Shown here in pieces: positions 29,901 through 30,291 of a stretch of 64,000 bases of DNA. The DNA is from Shigella phage KNP5. A program made the position numbers and the translations under genes. Under the pieces are notes generated by a model. The model did no database searches and had not been told where the DNA came from. It saw nothing but the letters and a program-made list of their open reading frames with translations. Where the stretch lies: sequence record KX452698; one strand, written 5' to 3'. Position 1 is the first letter of the stretch, and each line of letters begins with the position of its first letter.

Positions 29901-30291
29901 TTTAATCCAACAGAGTGATGCATATTCAACGTTTGTCCGTGATGTTTATGTCCGTTCTGATATTCGCGTTAAAAAAGACCTCGTTAAATTTGAAAATGCT
30001 TCTCAGAAGCTTTCTAAAATTAACGGTTACACTTATATGCAGAAGCGAGGCCTGGATGAGGAAGGTAATCAGAAATGGGAACCTAACGCCGGTTTAATTG
30101 CTCAAGAAGTTCAAGCTATTTTACCAGAATTAGTTGAAGGTGACCCTGATGGTGAAGCTTTACTTCGTTTGAACTATAACGGTGTAATTGGTTTAAATAC
30201 AGCTGCAATCAATGAGCATACCGCAGAAATTGCAGAACTTAAATCAGAAATCGAAGAACTTAAAGCATTAGTTAAATCATTGTTAAAATAA
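26980..30291 (+). CDS. 37: long tail fibre distal subunit gp37 with C-terminal intramolecular chaperone domain
   Basis: 1103 aa; Gly/Asn/Thr-rich beta-structure; C-terminal approx 111 aa carry S74-type motifs ([23 protein letters not shown]). Confidence 0.9.

Follow-up and report, generated by a model that had tools for sequence, protein, structure and literature searches.

The last 111 residues of gp37, the long tail fiber distal subunit of Shigella phage KNP5 (Ser993 to Lys1103), constitute a Peptidase S74 domain, a C-terminal intramolecular chaperone. This domain has conserved catalytic residues, a compatible predicted fold, and a matching gp38 partner. By homology with endoNF, T5 pb1, and S16 gp37, it very probably serves as a self-cleaving chaperone, with gp38 capping the fiber. 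The window that we analyzed is a 64,000-nucleotide stretch of DNA from this phage (sequence record KX452698). It carries the long-tail-fiber cassette of a T-even (Tequatrovirus) phage, in which the gene order 34-35-36-37-38-t is the same as in phage T2 (Table 1). The gp37 N-terminus is also near-identical to that of T2 gp37. At the nucleotide level, positions 29356 to 30320 share 99.7% identity with Shigella phage Sfk20 and Escherichia phage ECp13 and ~91% identity with the O157 phages AR1 and PP01. Codon 993 (tct, Ser) has its first base at 29956. With the final sense codon running to 30288 and the stop at 30289-30291, the chaperone segment comprises precisely the C-terminal 111 residues of gp37. 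A 60–amino acid out-of-frame open reading frame (29915-30097) was discarded as a mechanical artefact inside the well-supported gp37 frame.

Table 1. Positions of the tail fiber genes, the gp37 chaperone features, and the intergenic hairpin in the window.
Feature	Residues	Position	Strand	Basis or remark
gp34		21256-25128		Long-tail-fiber cassette
gp35		25137-26252		Long-tail-fiber cassette
gp36		26315-26971		Long-tail-fiber cassette; Pfam-confirmed
Gene 37, long tail fiber distal subunit precursor	1103 aa + stop	26980..30291	+	ORF; gp34-gp35-gp36-gp37-gp38-holin order
DVYVR, predicted new C-terminal strand of mature gp37, part of gp38 docking tip	988-992	29941..29955	+	
Predicted scissile bond	Arg992|Ser993	between bases 29955 and 29956		
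C-terminal intramolecular chaperone (Peptidase S74) domain	993-1103	29956..30288	+	PF13884, 6F45_A, fold matches
SDIRVKKD	993-1000	29956-29979	+	
Predicted nucleophile, first residue of the predicted released domain	Ser993	29956..29958	+	Aligns with endoNF Ser911
Predicted general base at Ser+5	Lys998	29971..29973	+	Aligns with endoNF Lys916
15-residue core motif	1038-1052	30091..30135	+	
C-terminal long helix, probably trimeric coiled coil	1066-1102	30175..30285	+	AlphaFold2, heptad periodicity, T5 homologue
Hairpin AGGGGC-UUCG-GCCCCU		30296..30311	+	Between gene 37 stop and gene 38 RBS (GGAGG)
Gene 38, T2/S16-type tail fiber adhesin	259 aa from ATG 30323	30323..31102	+	Pfam Gp38_N, GP38
Holin t		31133-31789		Long-tail-fiber cassette

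The family assignment is carried by a profile match. The original prediction had placed an S74-type domain in roughly the last 111 residues of gp37 and had proposed a search against the Pfam model Peptidase_S74 (PF13884, "Chaperone of endosialidase"). That search gave a significant match (E = 2.3e-12), scoring 47.5 bits against a curated gathering cutoff of 22, and the predicted domain is thus upheld. The match covers residues 993-1052 and profile positions 1 to 57 of 58; since it starts at residue 993, Ser993 is profile position 1. Precomputed database annotation also assigns PF13884 to near-identical proteins, and related copies of the domain in public records are labeled "chaperone of endosialidase" or "peptidase S74 domain-containing protein". 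NCBIfam has no model matching gp37 or its domain.

The S74 domain is a widespread portable module. An exhaustive search of a representative library of 1.84 billion proteins yielded 14,973 clusters matching the domain at E <= 1e-3, and tblastn located it in 1,670 phage records. Note that family size and conservation were taken from this exhaustive search and not from a word-indexed homologue search, which returned only 23 short or fragmentary proteins. In gp37 the domain runs to the very end of the protein; among the best 150 matches, it ends within 20 residues of the C-terminus in 128 and elsewhere in 22. The segment also matched 32 PHROG families. For the best 25 of these 32, the match occupies the last ~100 positions of the profile, and nearly all 25 carry a tail protein annotation.

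Two further observations concern gp37 as a whole and its database entries. Residues 450-550 (28327-28629) match Pfam Gp34_trimer (PF21446; E = 6.6e-8), a domain named for the C-terminal trimerization region of the proximal fiber protein gp34. Its presence in the middle of gp37 indicates a structural module common to both half-fibers, and several short database homologues carry PF21446 and PF13884 together. Several entries named 'tail fiber domain-containing protein [Escherichia coli]' are 170 residues long and correspond solely to the final 170 residues of this gp37. They are filed under E. coli and lie on contigs of ~165-167 kb, which is the size of a whole T-even genome; this suggests that the gene 37 calls are truncated or broken in those assemblies.

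Aligning the segment with S16, T2 gp37 (LC348380), a T5-like fiber (phage SP76), and the K1F endosialidase endoNF showed no variation at Ser993 or Lys998; the aligned endoNF residues are Ser911 and Lys916 (counted from the K1F gene coordinates). Conservation was then scored on 151 aligned sequences, comprising the query and its best 150 relatives. Asp994 and Lys998 are present in all 151 sequences, Ser993 in 149, and Arg996 in 116. The Lys at +6, Lys999, occurs in just 56 of the 151, which limits the hallmark core to S-D-x-R-x-K and makes the second Lys incidental. The cleavage motif had been given as SD-x-R-x-KK, which therefore holds up to its first Lys but not for its second. A further hallmark motif had been claimed downstream of SDIRVKKD, and this one is borne out by the same sequences: G1038, A1041, and P1049 occur in every sequence and Q1042 in 150/151.

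Upstream of the cleavage site, the picture is less uniform. In the endoNF and T5 mechanism, a fold-sensor Arg contributed by the neighboring subunit acts together with an Asp to give the oxyanion hole. In gp37 there is no Arg at position -14 relative to Ser993, where endoNF has Arg897 and T5 has Arg1250. The upstream fold-sensor candidates are partly conserved among the 151 sequences (Arg987 in 19, Asp988 in 91, and Arg992 in 61).

The closest solved relative, as found by phmmer against the PDB, is the distal fragment of gp37 from Salmonella phage S16, whose structure includes gp38 (6F45_A; E = 1.6e-43). The alignment is continuous: it begins in the GDNDTGL region of the tip, spans the cleavage motif, and extends to the final residue. 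The two proteins are alike in gene position and architecture; their last ~190 residues align, and they share the SD-R-KK site, the GLIAQEV motif, the LNYNG motif, and the C-terminal helix. They differ in that the S16 chaperone has 113 residues rather than 111, the residue before the scissile Ser is Ser in S16 and Arg here, and the tip upstream carries a 12-residue insertion that is absent from S16. This insertion contains the single HxH sequence of gp37, His949-Leu-His951 (29824-29832), which we considered as a metal site like that of the T4 gp37 needle. It is probably not one: the insertion is absent from S16 and the sequence reads LAH in phage PD112, and the idea was dropped for these reasons.

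Cleavage at the aligned bond has precedents in several relatives. According to the passage of PMC7917993 that reports Dunne et al. 2018, the C-terminal 113 residues of S16 gp37 autocleave between DLNVS and SDRRIKK, uncovering the gp38 docking surface. At the S16-aligned position, the window encodes DVYVR^SDIRVKK. Its DVYVR strand corresponds in the alignment to DLNVS in S16 and DVYIR in the fPS phages, directly before the reported or predicted cleavage site. For Yersinia T4-like phages, cleavage has been predicted at DVYIR^SDGRLKI (PMC7917993), and the same cleavage has been inferred for another T4-like phage (PMC8309999). In T2 and T6, the gp37 C-terminus is proteolytically removed, after which gp38 caps the fiber, as stated in the passage of PMC3157838 that cites Drexler, Riede and Henning 1986. 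The T2 gp37 C-terminus matches ours at E = 3e-20 with the cleavage site aligned (NVYIR^SDIRLK in T2 with DVYVR^SDIRVK here). In other respects, T2 gp37 departs from the protein described here. It has 1341 aa rather than 1103, its domain extends for ~99 residues after the Ser and is 29-35% identical to the domain here, and its terminal helix is shorter. In place of LRLNYNG, a motif that is near-invariant among close homologues, T2 has TVSSQA (T2 record 10734-11060). Going by the same passage of PMC3157838, T2, a short-domain phage without LRLNYNG, is still the one in which cleavage has been shown biochemically.

We modeled gp37 residues 983-1103 with AlphaFold2 from a 23-sequence alignment, as a monomer of what is an obligate trimer. 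Confidence in the model is moderate (mean pLDDT 75), and its first 17 residues, including the cleavage site, fall below pLDDT 50. From its N-terminal end, the model has a short helix followed by a beta-hairpin and a second short helix; two short strands then precede a C-terminal helix of 37 residues. The core motif (residues 1038-1052) is placed at the end of the beta-hairpin and in a short helix (pLDDT 80-92), and the long helix, at fragment residues 84-120, reaches a pLDDT of up to 94. The predicted fold agrees with that of the solved chaperones, in which an alpha/beta part with a beta-hairpin is followed by a C-terminal helix that forms a trimeric coiled coil. Fold comparison gave scores of 7.6 with the MyRF ICA domain (7DC3), 6.3 with the endoNF chaperone (3GW6), 5.7 with T5 pb1 plus its chaperone (4UW8), and 5.0 with the GA-1 neck appendage chaperone (3GUD). 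Above noise, the fold search gave solved intramolecular chaperones exclusively. The links to 3GW6 and 4UW8 come from fold comparison only: sequence searches of the PDB, with the single sequence and with a 15-sequence close-homologue profile, did not reach these two structures and found only 6F45, MyRF 7DC3, and a weak 8JOV. The coiled-coil tail of the original prediction is plausible. The model has one long helix at residues 1066-1102. Hydrophobic residues fill 8 of its 11 heptad a/d positions, and 139 of 20,000 shuffles gave at least as many; the homologous T5 domain has a trimeric coiled coil (PMC4690869). The gp37 tail helix is probably a trimeric coiled coil as well.

The chaperone domain of the K1F endosialidase endoNF (PDB 3GW6) is the type member of MEROPS/Pfam S74. 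Its catalytic pair aligns with that of gp37, but it is only 22% identical, is longer at 154 residues, carries an insertion of ~40 residues ahead of the terminal helix, and serves a tailspike enzyme rather than a fiber later capped by an adhesin. In T5 pb1, the Thr1263-Ser1264 bond is cleaved and Lys1269 activates the serine, which leaves with the chaperone; the S1264A mutation blocks cleavage (PMC4690869). Ser1264 and Lys1269 correspond to gp37 Ser993 and Lys998. The cleaved T5 tip, unlike the one predicted for gp37, is itself the receptor-binding domain, without a separate capping adhesin, and the long beta-hairpin 'tentacles' of T5 are not evident as such in the monomer model of the gp37 domain. 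The MyRF ICA domain (PDB 7DC3) is likewise a self-cleaving trimerization module, but it belongs to a eukaryotic membrane-bound transcription factor with an unrelated biological role.

The gene downstream of gene 37 encodes the partner expected for a fiber of the T2/S16 type. Its product, gp38, matches Pfam Gp38_N (E = 1.1e-21) and GP38 (E = 4.5e-73) and is an adhesin of the polyglycine type. It aligns with S16 gp38 (6F45_D; E = 6.4e-53) from Met1, and Trp7, Trp20, and Trp35 align with the S16 tryptophans, all three being kept. PMC7917993 describes the N-terminal tryptophans of gp38 as prongs, which enter hydrophobic pockets in the gp37 tip. The mechanical open reading frame of gp38 starts at TTG 30311, and the Gp38_N match begins at residue 5 of that frame. 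Given this match, the S16 gp38 alignment at ATG 30323, and a GGAGG (30313-30317) that lies 6-10 bases 5' of this ATG, the real start is almost certainly ATG 30323. Residues 37-259 of gp38 (30431-31099) are nearly identical to the gp38 part of PDB 9V85, a GFP-gp38 fusion, with 2 substitutions in 219 residues (positions 41-259; E = 5.2e-142). The gp38 receptor-binding module of this phage thus already has a solved structure. Its receptor-binding loops differ from those of S16 gp38, as the E values of the two matches (6.4e-53 versus 5.2e-142) reflect.

The spacer between genes 37 and 38 contains a hairpin with a perfect 6-bp stem and a UUCG tetraloop, preceded by the tandem TAA TAA stops of gene 37. 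Its 56-nt context folds at -16.2 kcal/mol (z = -2.1). We do not regard it as a plus-strand terminator: no T-run follows 3' of the hairpin on the plus strand, and a scan for terminator-like elements flagged it on the minus strand only. It could instead serve RNA stability or processing between the two genes. The record of a related phage has a 'terminator' feature within the matched 965-bp stretch.

These observations distinguish the fiber from that of T4. In the T4-type fiber, the gp37 C-terminus is the adhesin and gp38 is an assembly chaperone absent from the virion, an arrangement described as a completely different structure (PMC3157838). The gp37 reported here is not of this type, since its C-terminus is an S74 domain and its gp38 belongs to the adhesin family. 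We find instead the tip of a T2/S16-type fiber: a homologous gp37 distal fragment with the cleavage-site strand, together with an adjacent adhesin-type gp38.

From homology, we infer that the domain of this gp37 acts as a chaperone and is cleaved off, in the following sequence. The C-terminal helices of three gp37 chains would associate into a coiled coil and so nucleate the trimer. The chaperone domains would then fold and template the trimerization and folding of the beta-structured distal tip. Once the tip is correctly folded, Lys998 would activate Ser993, and the Arg992-Ser993 bond would be cut in each chain. The chaperone trimer would dissociate, and the exposed hydrophobic gp37 tip (...FVRDVYVR) would be capped by the tryptophan-bearing N-terminal domain of gp38.

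We weighed this self-cleaving chaperone against three other explanations. The S74-like domain might not cleave itself here, and might either be retained on the mature fiber or be removed by a separate host or phage protease. Such a reading could draw on the upstream fold-sensor Arg/Asp pair, for which the 151-sequence alignment gave no confident counterpart in gp37, and on the 22 of 150 relatives in which the domain lies away from the extreme C-terminus, showing that its context varies. We nevertheless consider it very unlikely. The gp37 domain retains Ser993, Asp994, and Lys998, and 149, 151, and 151 of the 151 sequences, respectively, share these residues. The S16 homologue autocleaves at the aligned bond, as the passage of PMC7917993 on that phage has it, and the T5 S1264A result indicates that the family cleaves itself (PMC4690869). 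Furthermore, a retained domain would occupy the gp38 docking tip.

Still less probable, in our judgment, is that the domain is vestigial and contributes nothing, gp37 being trimerized by gp38, as in T4, and by the general fiber chaperone gp57A. It is true that the chaperones of T4 gp37 are gp38 and gp57 (PMC5537660), and that one paper has T2-type gp38 act as a chaperone and then stay attached. However, the gp38 found here is a Pfam GP38 adhesin, unrelated in kind to T4 gp38, and all catalytic and core residues of the gp37 domain are intact. The domain also shares 100% protein identity with that of phage PD112, whereas the tip DNA upstream is only 69% identical; an unchanged domain beside a diverged tip argues for strong purifying selection. 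As for the motifs being a chance resemblance within a repetitive fiber protein, nothing speaks for this beyond the general low complexity of such proteins. It has next to no credibility, being refuted by the profile match (E = 2.3e-12), the PDB homologue (E = 1.6e-43), the 14,973 clusters, and fold matches to chaperones alone. The self-cleaving chaperone, with gp38 as the cap, is thus the reading that we retain.

The comparison with PD112 also reveals a mosaic pattern. Nucleotide identity is 69% across 29807-29956, the 150 bases of tip before the predicted cleavage site. It rises to 97-98% across 29957-30556, which spans the chaperone domain, the spacer hairpin, and the gp38 N-domain, and falls to 49-81% across the receptor-binding part of gp38 (30557-31102). 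At the protein level, the conserved block begins at ~Tyr982. In this one pairwise comparison, the chaperone domain and the gp38 N-domain therefore form one sharply bounded conserved block that starts near the predicted cleavage site; similar breaks have been remarked on in PMC7917993 and PMC8309999. The block may reflect simple linkage, or it may be a chaperone-plus-attachment cassette that is transferred as a unit. A more specific idea, to which we give only a small chance, is that the released chaperone and the gp38 that comes in are functionally coupled in a hand-over, competing for one tip surface and hence co-evolving. One pairwise comparison hints at this, and simple genetic linkage explains the block equally well.

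A self-cleaving gp37 chaperone is already documented for close relatives of this phage. As the same arrangement is known structurally for S16 and biochemically for T2, its presence here adds no new biology. What it does bear on is how this gene is read and used. A correct annotation should, on the homology described above, end mature gp37 at Arg992 instead of Lys1103, and the gp38-docking tip is best taken to be the final residues ahead of Ser993. Since mature gp37 is predicted to end at Arg992, with residues 993-1103 serving for folding, this segment should be kept in host-range swaps and in the recombinant production of the fiber.
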